64,000 nucleotides of DNA from an uncultured Actinomycetes bacterium (GTDB taxonomy: Bacteria; Actinomycetota; Thermoleophilia; Gaiellales; JAICJC01): assembly GCA_963718315.1 (NCBI GenBank), contig CAVQZC010000006.1, positions 262,065-326,064 on the forward strand, read 5' to 3'. The position numbers were made by a program, and so were the translations under genes. Positions 17,268 to 57,932 of this stretch are shown in pieces; the stretch's first letter is position 1, and the number at the start of each line of letters is the position of its first letter. The notes beneath the pieces are model-generated. The model saw only the letters and a list, made by a program, of their open reading frames with translations, did no database searches and was not told the DNA's origin.

Positions 17268-17385
17268 GCGCAACGACTGTGCGGCTGCGGTGAACTACCA
17301 CCCCGGTGGGGAGCACACCGATGCGGCGCCGGCGGCCCCGTGCGACGGTTGCTGTGAACGCGATAACCGACCAGAACGGAGACAC

Positions 17386-17460
17386 CATGGCCATAGGTCC
17401 TGTTCAGTCGTTGGCGCTCGGCTTCAGGCACCCGAACTTCCGCGGCGAAGTGATCGGGAA
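17386..17460 (+). pseudogene. N-terminal fragment of a DUF6325-like gene
   Basis: MAIGPVQSLALGFRHPNFRGEVIG matches the first 24 aa of the 57130-57693 protein (MAIGPVQLLVLGFESPDFHGEIIA), after which homology is lost. Confidence 0.5.
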
Positions 17461-17859
17461 GGCAGTCACAAGCCGAGCACGTGCCAGTCCACAACAAGCA
17501 GCCACAAGACGACGGCGCAGAACGACACCAGCAGGAGCGCCGCGATGATCAGAGCCCCGCTCCAGAACGCGACGCGGGCGGCTCGGACGTAGAACGGATG
17601 CGTTGCCACCGTAGCACCCTACAGAGCCGACCGGAGATCGAACGTATGAGACCAGACAGCAGAGCATCGAGAGCCCGCGCCGCGAATGCCGGTACGCCGA
17701 AAGGCGTCTGTGCCGATCGCCGGCGGGACCGGAGGTCCTACCAAACTTCGCGCCCGGCAACCTGACCAGGCACGATGTCGGCGGCGCGCACTCCAGCAGC
17801 CAGAGGGCCAGGGATGCCTGGTTGCCAGCGTCTTGCCGGCAGTGGCGAGCGCGTGAGCG

Positions 17860-18248: not shown

Positions 18249-19733
18249 TCAGAGACCCACCCGGGCCTCGACGCGTCCGGCGTCGACCGCCTGTTTGAGC
18301 GTCTGGTAGTCGCGTTCGTTCTGGTCGGCGTAGGCGTCTGCGAAGTCGGCGATGGCCCGGTCGAAGGCATCGCTGCTGCCAAGGTAGGCGGCGATGGCGA
18401 TGCGGTCTCCTGACCGGGCGTGGGCGCGGGCGAGCGTCCAACCGCAGGCTCGGCCGTAGAGCGCCATGCCTTTCGTCAGAGCGCCTGTTGTGTCGAAGGA
18501 GCCCTTCCAGTCCTTGAGCTGGCGTCCGTAGAAGTCGCGGGGTTGATCGTCGATGCCGCGTTGGACGTGAAGCCAACCGAGGAAGATGTCGCTTGATGCC
18601 TGCATCAGGTGCTGGCCGGCCACGACCCGCTCGCCGTGATTGCTGAACTGGCTCTTGGCGGTGAACTCCTCGAGCACCGAGGCTTGGGCCTCTTTGAACT
18701 GCAGGAACAGCGGGTCTTGCCCGTCTCGGCCCAGCATCAGGACGATCCAGGCGCGGGTGCCGACGCTGCCGACCCCGACCACCTTCCGAGCAATGTCAAC
18801 CATTCGGAACTCTTCCAGCAGGATTCGCCGATCGGTTTGCAGCGACCGGCGATAGTCGCGGAGGAGCGCGTGAATCGCTTTTTCCAGTTGCTCTCCCTCA
18901 TGGCCCGGAGCGAGATCGTGGACTCGTTCGATCAGTGGCGGGTCAGACACGATCTGCGGGTCGCCGTCGACCATCTGGGTGAGCTTGGAGAAGGCGGTCA
19001 TGCTGTCGCGCGTGCGCGCCTTCGCCAGCGTCTGGTCGAGGCGCTTGGTCATTCTCTTCTTCATCTGGCTCTGCAGCTCGGCCGCCAGTTCGTCGACATC
19101 CAAGCGGGAGTACCAGACGTCCAACACGCGCATGCCGGCGAACTGGCGCATTGCCTCGCGGTACGCCGCGACCGTCTCCCGTACGATCGACTTGCGATCC
19201 TTGGCCGTGTATCCGTTCTCGCGGCCGGCGACCTCGAAGCTGACCGCCAGCCGCTTTACGTCCCACTCCCACGGTCCCGGGAGCGTCTCGTCAAAGTCGT
19301 TGAGGTCGAACACCAGTCGCCGATCCGGGGACGCGAACACTCCGAAGTTGGAGAGATGCGCATCCCCACACAGCTGGGCACGTAACCCCGAGTGGGGTGT
19401 CGCGGCCAGGTCGGACGCCATGAGTAGCGCCGCGCCGCGGTAGAACGTGAACGGCGACACCAGCATCCGCCCATACCGGATCGGTACCAACTCTGGCACC
19501 CGGGAGGCTGCCTGTGACTGCAGCAGCTCGACTGGATCCGACCTGTGGGCAGCCGGCGTGTACTCGGCGTGACTGGAGCGCGGCACCTCACGCCGCGCTG
19601 CGCGACCGCGCGCCGCCCGCTCCGCGACACTCAGGTGCGGTACCTCCACCGTCTGCGACCCCCGCGGGCGCCCGCCCTTCGTCGCAACCTCCACAACGTC
19701 GCTGGCCCTCATCTGGGGTTCTGTTGTGCTCAT
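18249..19733 (-). CDS. DUF2252 domain protein, copy 1
   Basis: 494 aa. IRYGRMLVSPFTFYRGAA, CGDAHLSNFG, DLNDFDETLPGPWEWDVKRLA. Roughly 80 percent identical by eye to the 55537-57024 product. Confidence 0.85.
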   Translation of the reverse strand: MSTTEPQMRASDVVEVATKGGRPRGSQTVEVPHLSVAERAARGRAARREVPRSSHAEYTPAAHRSDPVELLQSQAASRVPELVPIRYGRMLVSPFTFYRGAALLMASDLAATPHSGLRAQLCGDAHLSNFGVFASPDRRLVFDLNDFDETLPGPWEWDVKRLAVSFEVAGRENGYTAKDRKSIVRETVAAYREAMRQFAGMRVLDVWYSRLDVDELAAELQSQMKKRMTKRLDQTLAKARTRDSMTAFSKLTQMVDGDPQIVSDPPLIERVHDLAPGHEGEQLEKAIHALLRDYRRSLQTDRRILLEEFRMVDIARKVVGVGSVGTRAWIVLMLGRDGQDPLFLQFKEAQASVLEEFTAKSQFSNHGERVVAGQHLMQASSDIFLGWLHVQRGIDDQPRDFYGRQLKDWKGSFDTTGALTKGMALYGRACGWTLARAHARSGDRIAIAAYLGSSDAFDRAIADFADAYADQNERDYQTLKQAVDAGRVEARVGL

Positions 19734-20228: not shown

Positions 20229-23138
20229 CTAGGCGCTCACTCCGTGCGCGACGGCGTGGATGCTTTCGTGCTCGTGCAGCCCTTTCTCGTCGTTGTGCGT
20301 GCCGGGCTTCAGGTCGAAGACGACCTTCTTGACCGTTCCCGTGAACGGGTAGGGCGCCTTGTCCTCGTAGGCCAGGTCGACGACGAGGCCGTTGTCGCGG
20401 CTGACGTCCATGCCGGCGTAGGAGGTGAGCATCATTGGCGCGGTCTTCTCGACTCGGCCCTCGCCGATCTGTTCGCCGTTGGCCCAGAGCGTGACGTTGC
20501 CTCCGCTGCCGGGCTTCTGCTCGTCGGCCTCGAACAGCATCTTCACTGTGACGTCGCCGGTTGGTAGCGGGTTGGTCGACGTCTGCCGGTAGCTTTCGAC
20601 GCCAAGGAACGAGTAGGTGTGGTTGAGCTTGCCATTCTCGTCCACCCAGAGCCCGAATCCGCCGATGAAGTCGGCGTTGGCGAGGATCACGCCCTCCGCG
20701 CCGCCCTTGGGGATCTCGAGCTCCGCCTCGATTGCGTATGAGCGCCCGGCGATACGCGGAACGAGTCCCTTCTGGACGTTCTGGACGTCGCCGGCAAACG
20801 TGTAGCGGGTCACCGTGGGCAACGGTGGCAGGATGCCGAAGAAGACGCAGATGGAGCCCAGCAGCGGCAGCACGCGGTTGCGCTCCGCCTCCTGCCAGAA
20901 CAGCTCCTTCAGCTCGGCGAGCTTCTCCGGCTTCTCGGCTGCCAGGTCCTTCGCCTGGGTGAAGTCGTCCGGTAGGTAGTACAGCTCCCAGGTGTCCTGC
21001 TCGGGGTCCCACTTGCCGGGGGCGAACTTGGCCAGCGCCTCCGGAGAGAACTCCCACGGCGCCTTGTCGAGGCGGGCGCACGCCCACCAGCCGTCCTTGT
21101 AAATCGCCCGCGATCCGATCACCTCGAAGTACTGCACCGTGTGCCGCTCCTCGGCCTTCGGGTCGTCGAACGTGTACAGGAAGCTTGTGCCGTCCATCGG
21201 CTCCTGCTCGATCCCGTCGACGACCTTCGGCTCCGGGATGCCGGCCGCTTCCAGGATCGTGGGGCCGATGTCGATGCAGTGCGTGAACTGGGAGCGGAGG
21301 TCGCCGCTTGCCTTGATCTTGTCGGGCCAGGCGACGACCATGGGATTGCGGGTGCCGCCCAGGTGGCTTGCCATCTGCTTGCCCCACTGAAACGGCGTGT
21401 TCCCGGCCCAGGCCCAGGCGGCTGCGATGTGCGGTGCCGTGTGGTCGTTGCCCCAGGCCTCGATGCCGCCGTACTTGTCGATCAGCTCGAGCTGCTGCTT
21501 GGGCTCGATGTCGACGCCGTTGAGGAACGTCATCTCGTTGAACGAGCCTGTCGTTGTCCCCTCCAGGCTGGCGCCGTTATCGCCCCAGATGTAGAAGATC
21601 AGCGTGTTGTCGAGGTCACCCATCTCCTCGACGGCGTCGAGCAGGCGGCCGACGTTCCAGTCGGCGTTGTCCATGAAGCCTGCGTAGACCTCCATCTGCC
21701 GGGTGTAGAGCTTCTTCGAGGCGTCGTCGAGTGAGTCCCAGGCGTCGAACAGATCGGGCCGCTCCGTCAGCACCGCGTCCTGCGGGATCACGCCCAGCTT
21801 CTTCTGCCGCTCGAAGACCTCCTCGCGGAGTGCGTCCCAGCCCTGGTCGAACTTGCCCTTGTACTTGTCGGCCCAGTCCGCCGCGACGTGGTGCGGCGCG
21901 TGGGCGACAGCCGGTCGAGTAGTAGAGAAAACCACGGCTTCTCAGGATCCTGCGCCCGCACCCCGTGCAGCCACTCAACTGACTTGTCGGTCAGATCGTC
22001 GGGGAAGTAGTACGGCTTGCTCGTCCGTGCCCTCGGGCACGCCGATCGTCGTGTTGTCCTGAGAGATCATCGGATCCCACTGGCCCGCGGCGCCGCTGAG
22101 GAAGCCCCAGAAGTGGTTGAAGCCCCAGTTCTGCGGCCAATGCTCGAACGGTCCGGCGGGGCCTTGCTCGCGGTCCGGCGTCATGTGCCACTTGCCGAAC
22201 CCGCCGGTCACATACCCGTTCTCCTTGAGGATGCGCGGAACGGCGGCGCAGCTCTTCGGCACGGCGCCCGTGTAGCCGGGGAAGGGGCCGGGGAACTCCG
22301 CGGACCGAACCCATGCCGACGCGGTGCTGGTTGCGCCCGGTCAGCGTGGCCGCCCTGGTCGGCGAGCACAGCGCCGACGACGTGGAAGCGGTTGTAGGTG
22401 AGGCCCATCTGCCCGACGCGGGTCAGGTTCGGCGTCGCCACAGGCCCGCCGAACGTGTCGGGCTGGCCGAAGCCGGCGTCGTCGATCAGAATCAGCAAGA
22501 CGTTGGGTGCGTCCTGCGGGGCCTTTGGACCGGGAATGATCGTCCAGTCCGGCACCGACTGGTCGATCGTCCTTCCAATCGCGCCGCCGAAGTTGCGGTC
22601 AGGGAGCGGCAGCGCTGTACGGTCGGGCACGAACTTGCCCATCGCCTCTGCGAGACCGTCCTTGAGCGCCTGCATTCCCTTCTTATCCGTCTGCACGACC
22701 GACTTCGCCAGCGCGCCCGGCAGCGCCTGCTCCACGGCGAGCCGCTGTGAATCCTCGAACGAGGCGATGATCCCCGCCGTCCCTGGCGGCAGGTTCTCGC
22801 CGATCTTGTCGTGCATCTCCGTCTCAAGCCGCTTGTCAACGAACTTCCCAACCAGGCCGCCGGCGACCGCGCCAGCAGCAGTGACCGCCAACAGCGGCGG
22901 CGCCGCCAGCCCAACAAGGACACCCACTCCGCCGCCCCACTCGACTCCCTTGCGACCGCGATGGTCAGCCGTTTGCGAGACGTTCACCGAGCCATCCTCG
23001 GCGTGCGTGATCAGAATCGCGGCCTCCATCTCGACCTTCTTGTCCCCGACGAGCTTGGCCAGCGCGTCAAAGTCCGTCCGTCGCTGCCTGGATGCTCGGG
23101 TAAGCGCCCACCAGGACATCGGTCGGTGTGTCAGCCAT
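20229..23138 (-). pseudogene. DUF1269-like membrane domain fused in frame to an arylsulfatase; about six frameshifts
   Basis: Segments read in order on the minus strand: MADTPTDVLVGAYPSIQAAT / DFDALAKLVGDKK...GVLVGLAAPPLL...NVLLILIDDAGFGQPDTFGG...RFH / TSSALCSPTRAATLTGRNQHRVGMGSV / AEFPGPFPGYTGAVPKSC...KWHMTPD...TDEQA / YYFPDDLTDKSVEWLHGVRAQDPEKPWF / LYYST / AVAHAPHHVAADW... to the end of ORF 20229-21935. Confidence 0.8.
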
Positions 23139-23273
23139 CACTCTCTCCTGTCTGTGTCATAGGTTCCGCCCTACCCACCTCGACCAGCCGGGCGCGGCAA
23201 TCGGGCAGGTGATCAGCGCCGACGCCTTCGCCCTGGCGATCCACCCGCCAGCTCGGCGCAGCTCACGAGCCGC

Positions 23274-23313
23274 CCGCCCTCGCCGAGCGGCGGTTGTGCG
23301 CTCGGCGAGGCGG
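23274..23313 (-). terminator. Strong GC hairpin (about 15 bp, one bulge) directly after micro-ORF A
   Basis: CCGCCTCGCCGAGCG-loop-CGCTCGGCGAGGGCGG on the minus strand. Confidence 0.4.
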
Positions 23314-23332
23314 CGCGGATCTCTGCCGTGGT

Positions 23333-23392
23333 TTAGCGGCGTCGGGCGACGCGCCGGGAGGTGCGTCGGGCGACTCTGCGGGATCCCATCAT
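23333..23392 (-). CDS. 19-aa Arg-rich micro-ORF, copy A (MMGSRRVARRTSRRVARRR)
   Basis: AGGAGG is 7 nt upstream of ATGATG. The peptide is identical to copy B at 57690-57749, while 9 codons differ only synonymously. Confidence 0.5.
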   Translation of the reverse strand: MMGSRRVARRTSRRVARRR

Positions 23393-23493
23393 GGTGTGTC
23401 CTCCTAGCCGAACTGGGCAGCGCTGACGCGATGTCATACTCGGAGTGGCTCAGACGTTATGGTCACGGGCGGCGGCGAGCGCCATTCCACTAG
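23380..23493 (+). pseudogene. C-terminal remnant of a paralog of the 48090-48812 gene
   Basis: ADAMSYSEWLRRYGHG versus ADSMSYAEWLHRQAHG at the C-terminus of the 240-aa protein. Confidence 0.3.
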
Positions 23494-39254: not shown

Positions 39255-39549
39255 CGCGCACCTCCAAGGGATGGGTCTACCAAGTGGGTAGAGGCCATCA
39301 GCCCGAGGGCGGTTAGGCGCGAGCCTCATCGCGCGTCGCAACAGTATACGCGGCATCTCGACCACGCCCGCATTGACCTCCACGGCGCCTACTCGCGCCA
39401 CCTATGCGATAGAACCGAGGTGTCCGCGGCCCCCTCGTGCCCCTCGTGCCCCTCGTAGGCACGCTCGCACTCCAAGCGCTCGCCGAAACCGTCCTGTTGG
39501 CGTGGCAGCGGTTCTGATCCAGCCCAGCTGTAGTCCGCAGGGGATGTGC

Positions 39550-42226: not shown

Positions 42227-42500
42227 CGTGGTAACACGGTGGTACCAATCTCACCCGATCTGAGCTGATCTCAGCTGACCTGAAATGGCTTGCTCAAGCC
42301 GTTCCTGACCCAGGCTGACCCCGTGCTCAATCTTGAGGGCCTTGTGACCCGTATGGGTCGTGGAGGTTCAAGTCCTCTCCAGCGCACTCCCCGGAAGCCG
42401 CATGGTTGAGCGGCTTTCGACGGTTCTGCGGGCGAGATGTTGGCTTGCAAACAGTTGTGTTTACTAGCCCGTGGTAACAGTTGCGATAACAAAGTGCGAG
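42227..42500 (+). repeat. Internal junction 2/3: right arm 42227-42332, core 42333-42432, left arm 42433-42500
   Basis: The core matches 6910-7010 except near its 3' end. The arm octamer doublets are conserved. Confidence 0.75.
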
Positions 42501-43435: not shown

Positions 43436-43480
43436 CCACGCGATCGAGACGGGCAAGACGACTACAGCCGGAGGTGCACG

Positions 43481-43528
43481 ATGATGGGATCCCGCAGGGC
43501 CGTGGCTTTCTCGCCCCGGTTCGGCTGA
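43481..43528 (+). CDS. Diverged micro-ORF copy C (MMGSRRAVAFSPRFG)
   Basis: Same SD-ATGATGGGATCCCGCAG start as copies A and B, but the peptide diverges after residue 6. Possibly decayed. Confidence 0.2.
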   Translation: MMGSRRAVAFSPRFG

Positions 43529-43726
43529 CCTGGTGGCCCGCTCGAGCGGCGTACCTGTCCTCGCCGGAGGGTGCTGGCCGTCGCCGGTTCGGGCTGGCGC
43601 GTGTTCGCCCCTCAGTTGGTGATTCTCCGCAGCCGGAATCGGTCGGTTCCCCGATGCGGCCGGCACCCGCTCCCGCGAGCATGAGTACCAGAGCAAGAGA
43701 TGACACTCCAAGGCTTGGAGAGGCAA

Positions 43727-44569
43727 ATGAAGACGCTTGGGATAATCGTGATGGTGCTGGTGCTGGTGACGGCCGTGCCGGCCGCAGCGATTGGCATTGA
43801 CTACAGCGCCGCGGACAACAGTGGCGCAAGCGCATCTGTCGCAGATTCCACCGGGTCTGGCGCTCCGGCGCCGGTGAGTGCGGCGTTGGTGATTCGGCAT
43901 CAGACGGCCCACTGCCACGCCTGGTCGTTCAACGGCGGCGCCTTTGCCGCTGACCAGTCCGCTCAGCTTGCCGTTGGTGATTCGATCAAGGTCACCAATA
44001 ATGACGTGATGGGCCACCAGCTGGTCGAGCTGTCGGGTCCGGCCGCGACCATCACCACCGCCCAGATGAACAAGCCGGGCGCCGGCGCCACCGTCATGTT
44101 CACCCGGCCCGGCACCTATGTGCTTGGCACCAAGCCCGGCGAGGACTACACCAAGGGCATCGTCACCACCGGCGCCGACAACGTGCTGCGGATGACGGTA
44201 GTAGTGGCGGCTCCTGGTGCCCCGGCGCCGGTGAGTGCGGCGTTGGTGATTCGGCATCAGACGGCCCACTGCCACGCCTGGTCGTTCAACGGCGGCGCCT
44301 TTGCCGCTGACCAGTCCGCTCAGCTTGCCGTTGGTGATTCGATCAAGGTCACCAATAATGACGTGATGGGCCACCAGCTGGTCGAGCTGTCGGGTCCGGC
44401 CGCGACCATCACCACCGCCCAGATGAACAAGCCGGGCGCCGGCGCCACCGTCATGTTCACCCGGCCCGGCACCTATGTGCTTGGCACCAAGCCCGGCGAG
44501 GACTACACCAAGGGCATCGTCACCACCGGCGCCGACAACGTGCTCAAGCTGCGGGTCGTCGTCTCCTAG
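43727..44569 (+). CDS. Secreted protein with two identical cupredoxin-like domains lacking the Cys-His-Met copper ligands
   Basis: Signal peptide MKTLGIIVMVLVLVTAVPAAA. Each domain has VTNNDVMGHQLVEL and RPGTYVLGTKPGEDYTKGIV where blue-copper proteins have C..H..M. Also an HQTAHCHAW motif. Confidence 0.7.
   Translation: MKTLGIIVMVLVLVTAVPAAAIGIDYSAADNSGASASVADSTGSGAPAPVSAALVIRHQTAHCHAWSFNGGAFAADQSAQLAVGDSIKVTNNDVMGHQLVELSGPAATITTAQMNKPGAGATVMFTRPGTYVLGTKPGEDYTKGIVTTGADNVLRMTVVVAAPGAPAPVSAALVIRHQTAHCHAWSFNGGAFAADQSAQLAVGDSIKVTNNDVMGHQLVELSGPAATITTAQMNKPGAGATVMFTRPGTYVLGTKPGEDYTKGIVTTGADNVLKLRVVVS
43865..44544 (+). repeat. Perfect tandem direct repeat: 323 identical nt (43865-44187 = 44222-44544), period 357 nt, in frame
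   Basis: Compared base by base in the given sequence. Confidence 0.95.
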
Positions 44570-44717
44570 AGGTCACAGCGCCCCGGGCTCCCCGTCGACG
44601 AGGTCACTGTCGCCTGGGAGCCCGATGGCGAACTGTTGCAACCTGTAAGTGCCGACGTTGACGATCTCAGCGCCCGGTGTCGGCTTCGGTATCCAAGCGT
44701 TTGCCTCGTGCTCAACC

Positions 44718-44816
44718 TTGAGGGCCGTGTGACCCGTATGGGTCGTGGAGGTTCAAGCCCTCTCCAGCGCACTCCCCGGAAGCCGCATGGTTGAGCGGCT
44801 TTCGGCGTTTCGGGGC
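44718..44816 (+). repeat. att-like copy 4 (distal; partial tRNA-Leu + terminator) with two substitutions in the tRNA part
   Basis: GGGCCGTGTGACCC versus GGGCCTTGTGACCC, and CAAGCCCTCTCC versus CAAGTCCTCTCC. The downstream sequence is unrelated to the island arms. Confidence 0.75.
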
Positions 44817-51520: not shown

Positions 51521-52033
51521 TTAGGCGGTGGTGGCGGCCGTTGCGTCCTTGGCCTGCTCGACGCCGTCCTTGTCGACCTCGTGCTTTGAGACGTCGTTGG
51601 CGCCCTTCAGCGCCTGACCTACGGCGCCTGCCCACTGCTCCTCGAACAGCGCCACGATCCCGGAACTGTTCGGCGGCAGATCGCCTGCCACCTCAGCCTT
51701 GATCTCCTTCTTCTCCTTGTGCGAGACGAGCCCGCCGACGCCGGCGCCAACGCCGGCTCCGACGACCCCCGACGCGAGCAATGCCGGCGGGAAGATCAAG
51801 CCCACCAGCAGGCCGCCGGCTGCGCCCAACGTCGCCGCGCCGCCCACGACATGGAAATCGTCCTTGACGTCGATCTTGCCGTTCGCGTCGCTGCTGACAA
51901 GCACCAGGCCGTCGACCATGATCGCCTTGTCCTTGGCCAGCTGCTTGATTGCATCCCAGTCAGCCTGGGCAGCGCCGGCGTCTGAATACGCAGCGATGTA
52001 GAGGTCGACAGGATTGTCATCGTTCGATGTCAT
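51521..52033 (-). CDS. DUF1269 membrane protein
   Basis: AAQADWDAIKQLAKDKAIMVDGLVLVS, Gly-zipper TM GAAGGLLVGLIFPPALLASGVVGAGVGAGVGGLV. AAGGAG SD. Confidence 0.75.
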   Translation of the reverse strand: MTSNDDNPVDLYIAAYSDAGAAQADWDAIKQLAKDKAIMVDGLVLVSSDANGKIDVKDDFHVVGGAATLGAAGGLLVGLIFPPALLASGVVGAGVGAGVGGLVSHKEKKEIKAEVAGDLPPNSSGIVALFEEQWAGAVGQALKGANDVSKHEVDKDGVEQAKDATAATTA

Positions 52034-55387: not shown

Positions 55388-55536
55388 ATCGTCCGGTTTG
55401 GGGCGGCGATCCAGTCTGTGTCTGGGACACTGGAGCCCGGCTGCGCTCGCACGACGGCGGCGCTTTCCGGCATCGGCCCGCGAGGGCGGCTTGGCCCGGG
55501 CTGGCACACGATTGAGGACGAATGAGAGGGAGCGTG

Positions 55537-57024
55537 ATGAGTACGACTGGGGCGGATGTTGGATCAGGCGAGGTTGTGAGGAGCGCCGCGAAGGGTGGGC
55601 GCAGTCAGGCACAGAAGGCACCCAGGGTGGTGCCGCATCTGAGCGTGGATGAGCGGGTGGCGCGGGGGCGTGCGGCGCGGGGGGACGTGCCGCGGTCGAG
55701 TCACGCGGACTTCAGTCCGGCCGAGCTGCGGCCGGATCCTGTCGCCCTGTTGGAGTCGCAGGCGGCGTCGCGTGTGCCGGAGTTGGTGCCGATCCGGTAT
55801 GGGCGGATGCTGGTGTCGCCGTTCACGTTCTACCGGGGAGCGGCGTTGATCATGGCGGCGGACCTGGCGTCGACGCCGAGCTCGGGTTTGCGCGCGCAGC
55901 TGTGTGGGGATGCGCACCTGTCGAACTTCGGTCTCTTCGCTTCACCGGATCGCCGGTTGGTGTTCGACCTCAACGATTTCGACGAAACGCTGCCCGGCCC
56001 CTGGGAGTGGGACGTGAAGCGGTTGGCGGTAAGCATGGAGGTCGCCGGCCGCGACAACAACTACTCCGACAAGCAGCGCCGAGCGATCGTGCTGGAAACC
56101 GTCGCCGGGTACCGAGAGGCCATGCGCGGGTTCGCGGGCATGCGTTCGCTGGACGTGTGGTATGCCCGCGCAGAGGTCGACGAGCTGATGGCGCAGATCC
56201 AAAGTCAGATCAACAAGGGGCAGCGCAAGCGCACCGAGAAGACGCTGGCCAAGGCGCGTACGAGCGACAGCATGACCGCCTTTGCCAAGCTCACCCGGAT
56301 GGTGGACGGCGAGCCCCAGATCGTGCCGGATCCGCCGCTGATCGAACGCGTGAGCGACCTTGCGCCAGGCAATGAGGGCGAGGCGCTGTTCGAGTCGCTG
56401 CACGCCCTGCTGCGGCGGTATCGACAGACGCTGCAGACCGATCGACGAGTCCTTCTGGAGGAGTTTCGGCTGGTCGACCTGGCGCGGAAGGTGGTCGGGG
56501 TTGGCAGCGTCGGTACTCGTGCGTGGATCGCCCTCTTGTTGGGCCGAGACGAGAAGGATCCGCTGTTCTTGCAGTTCAAGGAGGCTCAGTCCTCGGTGCT
56601 CGAGGATTTCACCGCTAAGAGCGAGTACGGAAATCACGGGCAGCGCGTCGTCGCCGGCCAGCATCTGATGCAGGCATCGAGCGACATCTTCCTGGGCTGG
56701 GTCCACGTCGAGACCAGTTTCGACGGGCAGCCTCGGGACTACTACGGCCGCCAGCTCAAGGACTGGAAGGGGTCATTCGAGTCAGAGGGAGCACTGCCGC
56801 AGGGCATGGGCCTGTACGGCCGGGTGTGCGGGTGGACGCTTGCCCGCGCGCATGCCCGCTCCGGCGATCGAATCGCGATCGCCTCCTACCTGGGTGGAGG
56901 CGACGTGTTCGACCGCGCGATCGCCGACTTCTCCGTTGCCTACGCCGACCAGAACGAGCGCGACTACGCCGCCCTCAAGAAGGCGGCCGCCGATGGTCAG
57001 TTGGAGGTTCGCACGGGTCTGTAG
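55537..57024 (+). CDS. DUF2252 domain protein, copy 2
   Basis: ORF 55522-57024 with the same motifs as copy 1. Confidence 0.85.
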   Translation: MSTTGADVGSGEVVRSAAKGGRSQAQKAPRVVPHLSVDERVARGRAARGDVPRSSHADFSPAELRPDPVALLESQAASRVPELVPIRYGRMLVSPFTFYRGAALIMAADLASTPSSGLRAQLCGDAHLSNFGLFASPDRRLVFDLNDFDETLPGPWEWDVKRLAVSMEVAGRDNNYSDKQRRAIVLETVAGYREAMRGFAGMRSLDVWYARAEVDELMAQIQSQINKGQRKRTEKTLAKARTSDSMTAFAKLTRMVDGEPQIVPDPPLIERVSDLAPGNEGEALFESLHALLRRYRQTLQTDRRVLLEEFRLVDLARKVVGVGSVGTRAWIALLLGRDEKDPLFLQFKEAQSSVLEDFTAKSEYGNHGQRVVAGQHLMQASSDIFLGWVHVETSFDGQPRDYYGRQLKDWKGSFESEGALPQGMGLYGRVCGWTLARAHARSGDRIAIASYLGGGDVFDRAIADFSVAYADQNERDYAALKKAAADGQLEVRTGL

Positions 57025-57129: not shown

Positions 57130-57693
57130 ATGGCGATTGGGCCGGTACAGCTGCTGGTGTTGGGCTTCGAGAGTCCAGACTTCCACGGTGAGATCATCGC
57201 GGAGCTCGAGCGGCTACGACAGAGCGACACGGTGCGCGTGATCGACGCCTTGGCGGTCTACAAGGACGCCGAAGGTGAGATGGAGGTCGCGCATCTCAGC
57301 AACCTCTCCAAGGATGAAGCGATCGAGCTTGGCAGCAAGGTCGGGGCACTGATCGGTCTCGGTATCGAGGGCGAGCAGGGCGCCGAGGCGGGAGCCGTCG
57401 CCGGCGCCGAGGCGGCGGAGGACGGCGTCAACGTCTTCACCGATGACGAGGCATGGGACGTCCTGGAAGAGCTCCCAAACGACTCGGCTGCGGCGTTGAT
57501 CCTGGTCGAGCACCACTGGGCGGTAGGGCTTCGCGATGCAGTCGCGCGAGCCGGAGGCTTCCGCATCTCAGACGGCTTCATCAGCCCGCTCGACCTGGTC
57601 GAGATCGGCCTGGTGTCGTCCGAGGAGGCAGAACGACTCGACGCGCTGGAGCGGAGTAGGGAGTCGACTTCAACGACCGGAGGATCGAAATGA
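57130..57693 (+). CDS. DUF6325-like soluble acidic protein
   Basis: MAIGPVQLLVLGFESPDFHGEIIAELERL ... AALILVEHHWAVGLRDAV. AAGGAG SD. Family name from memory. Confidence 0.65.
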   Translation: MAIGPVQLLVLGFESPDFHGEIIAELERLRQSDTVRVIDALAVYKDAEGEMEVAHLSNLSKDEAIELGSKVGALIGLGIEGEQGAEAGAVAGAEAAEDGVNVFTDDEAWDVLEELPNDSAAALILVEHHWAVGLRDAVARAGGFRISDGFISPLDLVEIGLVSSEEAERLDALERSRESTSTTGGSK

Positions 57694-57749
57694 TGGGATC
57701 TCGCAGAGTCGCGCGGCGGACGTCTCGCCGAGTCGCTCGACGCCGCTAG
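57690..57749 (+). CDS. 19-aa Arg-rich micro-ORF, copy B (MMGSRRVARRTSRRVARRR)
   Basis: Its ATG overlaps the upstream TGA (ATGA). The peptide is identical to copy A with only synonymous codon differences. Confidence 0.5.
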   Translation: MMGSRRVARRTSRRVARRR

Positions 57750-57763
57750 ACGGCAAACACTTG

Positions 57764-57802
57764 GGCGACTGGCCAGCGCGATACCCGCGCCGGCCAGTCG
57801 CC
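57764..57802 (+). terminator. Strong GC hairpin after micro-ORF B
   Basis: GGCGACTGGCC-A-GCGCG-ATACC-CGCGC-C-GGCCAGTCGCC. Confidence 0.4.
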
Positions 57803-57932
57803 TGTCCACCCCCGGACGCTGATCGGCGCGCCGTCGCGGCGGGGATGCGTCTCTCGACCCAAAGCGCTCATTGCCGAGGTCGCCCGGCGCACGAAGCGTC
57901 TTGGTCAACCCCCGAATAGAGGGAGTATCACT

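Follow-up and report, generated by a model that had tools for sequence, protein, structure and literature searches.

A micro open reading frame (micro-ORF) encoding 19 amino acids, nine of them arginine, lies at the end of an operon in the DNA of an uncultured Actinomycetes bacterium of the Gaiellales, behind the gene for an acidic protein here termed p187. The window, the whole stretch of DNA analyzed, is 64,000 nucleotides (nts) long (contig CAVQZC010000006.1, positions 262,065 to 326,064; G+C content 67.5%) and has a second gene for the identical peptide elsewhere. That the micro-ORF is a real translated gene under strong purifying selection is as well supported as sequence alone allows. 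In related genomes it is genetically locked to p187, and its product is probably a basic subunit that binds p187 near residues 54–61. A short note made earlier from the letters of the window, the original prediction, had picked out the micro-ORF; what the note did not have, and what proves decisive, is that the gene is paired almost obligatorily with a single family of acidic proteins.

Two genes for one peptide

The two copies, their signals and the partner gene are as follows.

57130–57693, + strand: p187 gene; 187 amino acids, isoelectric point (pI) 4.2, net charge −25; a divergent DUF6325/DUF1269-like protein and the conserved upstream partner
57679–57684, + strand: Shine-Dalgarno (SD) sequence GGAGGA of copy B, within the last p187 codons
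57690–57749, + strand: micro-ORF copy B, encoding MMGSRRVARRTSRRVARRR and a stop; last cistron of the p187 operon
57763–57803, + strand: GC-rich hairpin 3′ of copy B, −37.2 kcal/mol, z −5.2; terminator-like, with no U tail
23400–23405, − strand: SD sequence AGGAGG of copy A, 8 nts 5′ of its ATG
23333–23392, − strand: micro-ORF copy A, encoding the identical peptide MMGSRRVARRTSRRVARRR and a stop; stand-alone, with no p187 gene upstream
23267–23323, − strand: GC-rich hairpin 3′ of copy A, −42.3 kcal/mol, z −3.8; no U tail

The ATG of copy B overlaps the TGA stop codon of p187 (ATGA). Both copies start with the same DNA, ATGATGGGA, and the similarity between them spans exactly ATG to stop, with flanks that are unalignable. 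Ten of the 60 bases differ, all at the third codon position: nine of the differences are synonymous and the tenth is TAA versus TAG. As approximately 31% of sites are synonymous, the neutral chance of all nine being silent is ~3e-5. The codon-by-codon list of differences in the original prediction is exact, and the SD sequence of copy A, the ATGA coupling of copy B and the strong hairpin after each copy, which it also described, are all real. Neither ORF folds more stably than its shuffled counterparts (fold z +1.2 and −1.6). Scans near copies A and B for sigma-70 promoters and U-tailed terminators gave no match.

Evidence for coding

The peptide is too short for direct similarity search, and degenerate DNA patterns and longer natural variants were used instead. 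A pattern for MMGSRRVARR, which forces the MMGS start, was run against one genome per species from 185,579 species. It yielded 81 stretches, 76 of which are short ORFs of 19–23 amino acids. The first seven loci fetched by their p187 homologue (74–93% identity) all carry the micro-ORF right after p187; the peptide is identical in six and has R13C in the seventh, while the Ser12 codon has gone from TCN to AGC in three. A second sample, blind to the peptide, comprises 80 metagenome loci found by p187 motifs alone, 71 of which have at least ~140 nts of downstream DNA. In total 146 peptide copies were collected.

The identical 19-mer occurs in 53 copies, including A and B of the window, through 49 distinct DNA sequences. 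Variable sites among these 53 are distributed 8/2/17 over the three codon positions, and the first-position changes are synonymous switches between CGN and AGR for arginine and between TCN and AGY for serine. For the 19-amino-acid class (78 distinct DNA sequences) the proportion of synonymous differences is 0.55, corresponding to a synonymous rate (dS) of ~1, and the proportion of non-synonymous differences is 0.04–0.06. The resulting ratio of non-synonymous to synonymous rates (dN/dS), ~0.04–0.06, is an overestimate, since six-fold arginine and serine paths are partly scored as non-synonymous. An SD-like motif is present within 18 nts upstream in 135 of 143 copies (94%), compared with 16% at random positions, and only one of the 146 copies (locus L162) has a clear frameshift. 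V7, A8, T11, V15 and A16 vary no more than the arginine positions do. RNAalifold finds no consensus structure in the 19-amino-acid-class alignment.

Selection is deduced to act on coding because synonymous sites are saturated, dN/dS is ~0.05, SD-like motifs precede 94% of copies and the RNA has no consensus structure. From the RNAalifold result together with the codon-position pattern, it follows that conservation of a structured RNA is excluded as the reading of these data. The original prediction had proposed translation under purifying selection, and had named as contrary outcomes the accumulation of frameshifts and non-synonymous changes at the neutral rate in further copies, and conservation due to an overlapping structured RNA; neither is seen.

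Two codons do show nucleotide-level preference. Arg6 (57705–57707 in copy B) is AGA or AGG in 52 of the 65 peptide-blind copies (80%), compared with ~6% of arginine codons in the long genes of the window. Gly3 (57696–57698 in copy B) is GGA in 33 of the 45 peptide-blind copies with glycine there (73%), against a background of 15%. The other arginine positions use CGN freely and vary among all six codons. Either a programmed slow codon or selection to keep the start region unstructured could account for the preference at these two positions.

The peptide family

The family pattern is M-[MFLI]-[GA]-[SGAT]-RRVARRT-[SGA]-RR-[VT]-A-RR followed by R or by VSRR(R), for a length of 19–25 amino acids. 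The short class, ending in R, has 19–20 residues and the long class, ending in VSRR(R), has 22–25, with about two additional arginines. Arginine makes up 47% of the residues of the 146 peptides, which lack lysine altogether. The window peptide, with nine arginines among 19 residues, has a net charge of ~+9 and a pI of 12.0. In helical projection V7, A8, T11, S12, V15 and A16 are on one side and the arginine pairs spread over the remaining ~220 degrees.

All 76 ORFs from the pattern scan are from metagenome-assembled genomes (MAGs) of Actinomycetota. Carriers are uncultured Actinomycetes, Thermoleophilia (Solirubrobacteraceae, Miltoncostaeaceae, Gaiellales), Pseudonocardiaceae, Jiangellaceae and Propionibacteriaceae, and the module also occurs in one cultured species, Nonomuraea gerenzanensis (NZ_LT559118.1, at ~8,099,000), where the 24-residue peptide reads MFGARRVARRTGRRTARRVSRRRR. 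Seventeen MAGs have two or three MMGS-type modules. The peptide is near-invariant across Actinomycetes and Thermoleophilia.

Ten variants of the peptide were all absent from a collection of ~15 billion predicted proteins. Four variants gave no Pfam family at E≤10, no match to the peptide was found among NCBIfam or PADLOC models or PDB chains (E≤10), and the motif is absent from the searched literature. On this evidence it constitutes a predicted, previously unannotated microprotein family matching no described one, in agreement with the original prediction, whose author did not recognize it either.

Linkage to p187

The micro-ORF and p187 are genetically locked together. Of the 76 loci in the peptide-first sample, 72 have a p187 homologue (70–93% identity) upstream on the same strand, its end lying −4 to ~+100 nts from the start of the micro-ORF. 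Three of the four exceptions are at locus edges. [The fourth, L088 (3363–3422), in a Miltoncostaeaceae MAG, is, like copy A, a stand-alone gene for the identical peptide, the third copy in that MAG; it has no SD sequence and no p187 upstream.] The converse holds in the peptide-blind sample, where 69 of the 71 loci with sufficient downstream DNA have an intact arginine-rich micro-ORF, one has a frameshifted version (L162) and one has none (L153).

At most loci an in-frame stop, a spacer of 10–100 nts and a separate SD sequence intervene between p187 and the micro-ORF; at many others the two overlap as ATGA. In 76 of 77 loci the micro-ORF stop is followed ~0–40 nts later by a strong GC hairpin, with −16 to −52 kcal/mol, the sequence of which is not conserved. 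As a rule, therefore, no further cistron comes after the micro-ORF.

Clustering of the neighborhoods revealed no third constant gene. Among the 76 loci the loose neighbors are HD_5 (~24), DUF2252 (15), LAL/MalT-type regulators (15) and DUF1269 (~8), with DUF7144, PLDc_N/SHOCT proteins and K+ channels also recurring loosely. The next gene is convergent in ~20 loci, and in about a third there is a co-directional gene within ~100 nts downstream. No mobile-element context is seen around the modules. The original prediction had pointed to DUF6325, DUF1269 and DUF2252 genes as potential companions. Association with the latter two is only loose. For DUF6325, three bona fide loci (one each from Streptomyces sp. 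A7024, a species of Conexibacter and a MAG) have similar neighborhoods and no arginine-rich micro-ORF, from which it follows that the peptide belongs to the p187 subfamily alone.

The partner protein

p187 looks cytoplasmic, and its family, in which ~185 amino acids is the usual length, is large, with over 8000 close homologues and, at E≤1e-3, 2342 cluster representatives. An exact look-up of the p187 of the window matched no protein record; the nearest relatives are MAGs of uncultured Actinomycetes. Its score against DUF6325 (PF19850) is 10.8 bits (E 0.52), below the Pfam gathering threshold of 23.4 bits, and against DUF1269 (PF06897) 15.3 bits (E 0.026), below that of 26.9 bits. The central glycine-rich segment of p187 is interrupted by glutamate and is not the glycine-zipper membrane segment of DUF1269.

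With DUF6325 p187 has in common an N-terminal beta-alpha-beta-beta module and the EH(H/R)W...LRDA...GG motifs, and the loci of both have LAL/MalT-like regulators, SHOCT, DUF7144 and DUF2252 as neighbors. It differs in being longer, in having an acidic Gly/Ala/Glu-rich insert (approximately residues 68–100) and in being the sole subfamily followed by the micro-ORF. [In P0009 and P0010 this insert is internally duplicated.] A tandem paralogue with 39–54% identity precedes p187 in three loci, and the homologues of that paralogue are bona fide DUF6325 (PF19850). [The operon order at these loci, L042, L057 and L070, is DUF6325, p187, micro-ORF, the DUF6325 paralogue being ~600 nts upstream of the micro-ORF.] Judged by these motifs and scores, p187 is a divergent, distant relative of DUF6325/DUF1269. 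The DUF6325-like label that the original prediction gave to the upstream gene thus holds as distant kinship, but not as Pfam membership.

AlphaFold2 models of p187 are of low confidence, with a predicted local distance difference test score (pLDDT) of 58 from a shallow alignment and 55 from a deeper one that includes DUF6325 paralogues. Both have beta-alpha-beta-beta, a helical acidic insert and then alpha-beta-alpha-beta-alpha-alpha. A Foldseek search of the PDB with the p187 model gave no match below E 0.1, and no fold is assigned.

Co-variation between p187 and the peptide classes

The computational evidence for contact between the two products comes from 128 p187 sequences paired with their peptides and placed on a tree made by the unweighted pair group method with arithmetic mean (UPGMA). 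The two peptide classes are mixed on this tree: parsimony gives ~14 switches between short and long, and the mean p187 distance is 0.21 within a class and 0.23 between classes. Residue 61 of p187 is lysine or arginine in 80 of the 88 partners of short peptides and non-basic in 38 of the 40 partners of long ones. Residue 54 is glutamate in 34 of the 40 long-class partners and non-acidic in 79 of the 88 short-class partners. For p187 pairs that are 2–16% apart, residue 61 differs in 96% where the peptide class differs compared with 17% where it is the same, and this contrast is the largest of any p187 column. Nine disjoint closest short/long pairs were compared, and in every one the p187 that accompanies the longer, more basic peptide has lost positive or gained negative charge at 54/61.

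A complex of p187 and peptide is proposed because of this charge-compensating pattern, the opposite net charges (−25 and ~+9) and the coupled translation. The peptide would be made as the last, translationally coupled cistron behind acidic p187, from its own SD sequence and start, with its stop followed by the terminator-like hairpin. It would then bind p187 directly as a small basic subunit, presumably as a short helix with one face of Val, Ala, Thr and Ser and a broad arginine face, the latter making electrostatic contact around p187 residues 54–61. The pair may act together in membrane- and stress-type gene neighborhoods, and stand-alone copies such as copy A could be a source of additional peptide, whether for p187 or for the related DUF1269 protein whose gene follows closely.

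Several points weigh against direct binding to p187. Copy A and L088 have no adjacent p187, and the peptide may have another target. The use of arginine and never of lysine in all 146 peptides would also suit binding to a polyanion (RNA, DNA, polyphosphate or acidic lipid). The co-variation depends on two columns of a highly conserved protein and on a UPGMA tree, which leaves room for residual phylogenetic confounding, and both AlphaFold2 models of p187 are poor. Apparent p187–peptide fusions are weak evidence. [Those in P0012, P0049 and P0089 were considered as Rosetta-stone evidence and discounted; one of the fusions, at L089, is the split locus L032 with a single 1-nt deletion, probably an assembly indel.]

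Alternatives and comparison with known systems

The alternative that survives best is that the peptide really acts on a polyanion, whether acidic lipid, polyphosphate, DNA, mRNA, rRNA or the ribosome. p187 would then be just its carrier or chaperone, or a buffer that renders the polycation harmless up to its release, much as in the protamine/nucleoplasmin pair or a basic ribosomal protein with a dedicated chaperone. This is a tentative possibility, and it extends the proposal of a p187–peptide complex rather than excluding it. Lambda N, the arginine-rich motifs (ARMs) of HIV Rev and Tat, and salmine have arginine runs split by small residues (V, A, S, T, G), are highly positive and bind polyanions. 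The RRxx periodicity of the peptide resembles such RNA-binding motifs and protamines, and like them it has small residues between its arginine runs and high positive charge. However, ARM peptides and protamines are viral or eukaryotic, being parts of larger proteins or sperm chromatin proteins, and the peptide has no homology to them; its binding to a polyanion is hypothetical. To our knowledge there is no bacterial equivalent with a dedicated acidic partner.

In favor of a polyanion are the absence of lysine and the existence of stand-alone copies. The peptide also hardly changes over two taxonomic classes while p187 varies by 10–30%, which suggests a very conserved target, and the order of the genes, acidic gene first and then polycation with an ATGA overlap, fits a buffer made before its cargo. 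There is also precedent for tiny unannotated basic proteins on actinobacterial ribosomes: bL37 (24 amino acids, pI 12.0) and bS22 (33 amino acids, pI 12.75) are very basic, highly conserved in Actinobacteria and often lack annotation (PMC10081302). The peptide is like them in size, basicity, degree of conservation and lack of annotation. It is unlike them in having no sequence similarity in the PDB and NCBIfam searches, and in its patchy distribution, often with two or three copies per genome and nearly always co-encoded with p187. MMGS-type matches in GTDB species genomes are from MAGs of limited lineages, rather than having the spread across Actinobacteria of a core gene for a ribosomal protein. 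Further, bS22 is rich in both lysines and arginines (PMC10081302), whereas arginine is the only basic residue here. The charge co-variation at p187 54/61 is also taken as a sign that p187 is at least a binding partner. A more specific version, in which a protamine- or ARM-like polycation acts in stress or dormancy on the ribosome or rRNA (most plausibly), the nucleoid or polyphosphate, with p187 as acidic carrier, is rather doubtful.

DUF1127 proteins are another potential parallel. They have a Pfam domain, are usually ~45–70 amino acids long and are known mainly from proteobacteria. They are reported often to be under 50 amino acids (PMC12501420), with YjiS having 54, and proteins such as YjiS and those of Agrobacterium have a short arginine-rich segment and act via a larger partner or RNA (PMC12501420, PMC11707872). 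The peptide shares with them its bacterial origin, shortness and arginine-richness. It differs in having no Pfam match at E≤10, in its length of 19–25 amino acids, in being actinobacterial and in being locked to one partner gene.

It is improbable that the operon is a toxin–antitoxin-like module with a toxic polycationic peptide neutralized by p187, though several features would suit it: the layout is that of a type II system, with two genes, the acidic one first, and a 4-nt ATGA overlap or short spacer; the charges are opposite; and, as mentioned, 17 MAGs have two or three copies. Toxin–antitoxin modules usually evolve fast, however, and here p187 is 70–93% identical between Actinomycetes and Thermoleophilia and the peptide nearly invariant. 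There is no Pfam or PADLOC toxin or antitoxin match, mobile elements are not seen around the modules, and copy A, with its strong SD sequence, stands without an adjacent p187.

The original prediction had raised a further possibility, an arginine-codon-rich leader sensing translation. In its general form this would be a cis-acting regulatory ORF, either an arginine-sensing leader/attenuator or a ribosome-arrest peptide, controlling the hairpin and downstream genes. Like attenuator leaders, the ORF is very short, is rich in a single amino acid, with its nine arginine codons, and has its own SD sequence and a strong hairpin close behind. Where the hairpin begins 0–30 nts past the stop, a terminating ribosome would cover its 5′ arm. 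The rare codons at Arg6 and the co-directional gene in about a third of loci are compatible with this, and copy A, 214 nts upstream of a same-strand DUF1269 gene, is the only arrangement that a leader might suit. Unlike a leader, though, the ORF is at the 3′ end of an operon, behind p187 and before no particular gene, as the genes downstream are unrelated and in ~20 loci convergent. It is the peptide and not its codon content that is conserved: arginine codons other than Arg6 vary freely, while the equally invariant Val, Ala, Thr and Ser positions are not needed by a sensor of arginine codons. The RNA showed neither a conserved structure nor an alternative pairing that could serve as antiterminator. 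The leader idea is thus disfavored, and is quite improbable.

Least credible, and scarcely so at all, is that the conserved entity is a structured RNA or nucleotide-level element, or a p187 tail split off by sequencing errors. Many of the MAGs come from long-read assembly and contain indel errors, the frame of some p187 genes looks broken, a single base separates one apparent fusion from a split locus, and GGA at Gly3 and AGR at Arg6 are favored at the nucleotide level, but substitutions concentrate at the third codon position, with first-position changes just where they are synonymous, the alignment has no consensus structure, and the in-frame stop, spacer and separate SD sequence of most loci are also present in Joint Genome Institute metagenome contigs and an isolate genome.

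Other features of the window

Three further features relate to the two micro-ORF copies or resemble them.

43481–43528, + strand: copy C; SD sequence GGAGG at 43470–43474, first six codons MMGSRR and then unrelated sequence (MMGSRRAVAFSPRFG and a stop)
22208–23119, − strand: DUF1269-domain ORF running into a frame-broken sulfatase; its start is 214 nts downstream of copy A on the same strand
55522–57024, + strand: DUF2252 gene upstream of p187; a loose neighbor, as in 15 of the 76 related loci

Copy C, as the original prediction noted, keeps the SD sequence and first six codons and then diverges; just the SD sequence and the first 17–18 nts are shared with A and B. It has no significant hairpin (z −0.07) and is regarded as a decayed remnant. 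Rfam at gathering thresholds gave no match at copies A, B or C, and an E-value scan around copy C was also empty. A 108-nt direct repeat (94% identity) at 42319–42426 and 44704–44811 brackets a 2.4-kb segment containing copy C and a cupredoxin-like gene, and its two copies may thus be the attachment site-like ends of an old insertion. Part of the repeat looks like the 3′ half of a tRNA, with T-arm and acceptor, though neither ARAGORN nor Rfam calls a tRNA there. The gene in question (43700–44569), for a secreted cupredoxin-like protein, has within it a 300-nt tandem duplication (99% identity; 43857–44156 and 44214–44513) that yields two near-identical domains.

DUF1269 is a membrane-anchored relative of p187. 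The frame of the sulfatase that follows the DUF1269 ORF on the − strand is in three pieces (22208–23119, 21975–22262 and 20229–21935), and the region 20229–23119 is either a DUF1269–arylsulfatase fusion pseudogene with two frameshifts or the product of long-read assembly indels. A second DUF1269-like paralogue, with 34% identity to the one downstream of copy A, is at 51545–51967 (− strand).

A p187-like remnant of the first 25 residues (MAIGPVQSLALGFRHPNFRGEVIGK; 64% identity, E 3.5e-7) is present at 17384–17461 (+ strand), where a second p187 module has apparently decayed. It adjoins a second DUF2252 paralogue (494 amino acids) at 18249–19733 (− strand). The window is rich in small membrane- and stress-type genes, among them TMEM175, DUF1622, DUF1345 and the two copies of DUF2252, and at 39282–39342 (− strand) has a crcB-motif fluoride riboswitch, the score of which, 41.5 bits, exceeds the gathering threshold.

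Significance

Genes of fewer than ~30 codons are invisible to standard gene callers, and yet this micro-ORF is among the most strongly constrained sequences of the window. Microproteins bound to a partner are already known as a kind; it is the composition that is unusual here. The 19-amino-acid polycation and its partner of charge −25, from the uncharacterized DUF6325/DUF1269 superfamily, make up a two-gene system that is directly testable, as the predicted contact region of p187 (residues 54–61) is open to mutation and a cultured host, N. gerenzanensis, has the module. The peptide provides a first functional handle on p187, which has thousands of homologues in soil metagenomes. Should the polyanion proposal prove true, the peptide of these soil Actinomycetota would be a trans-acting microprotein regulator of a new class, accompanied by a dedicated chaperone.

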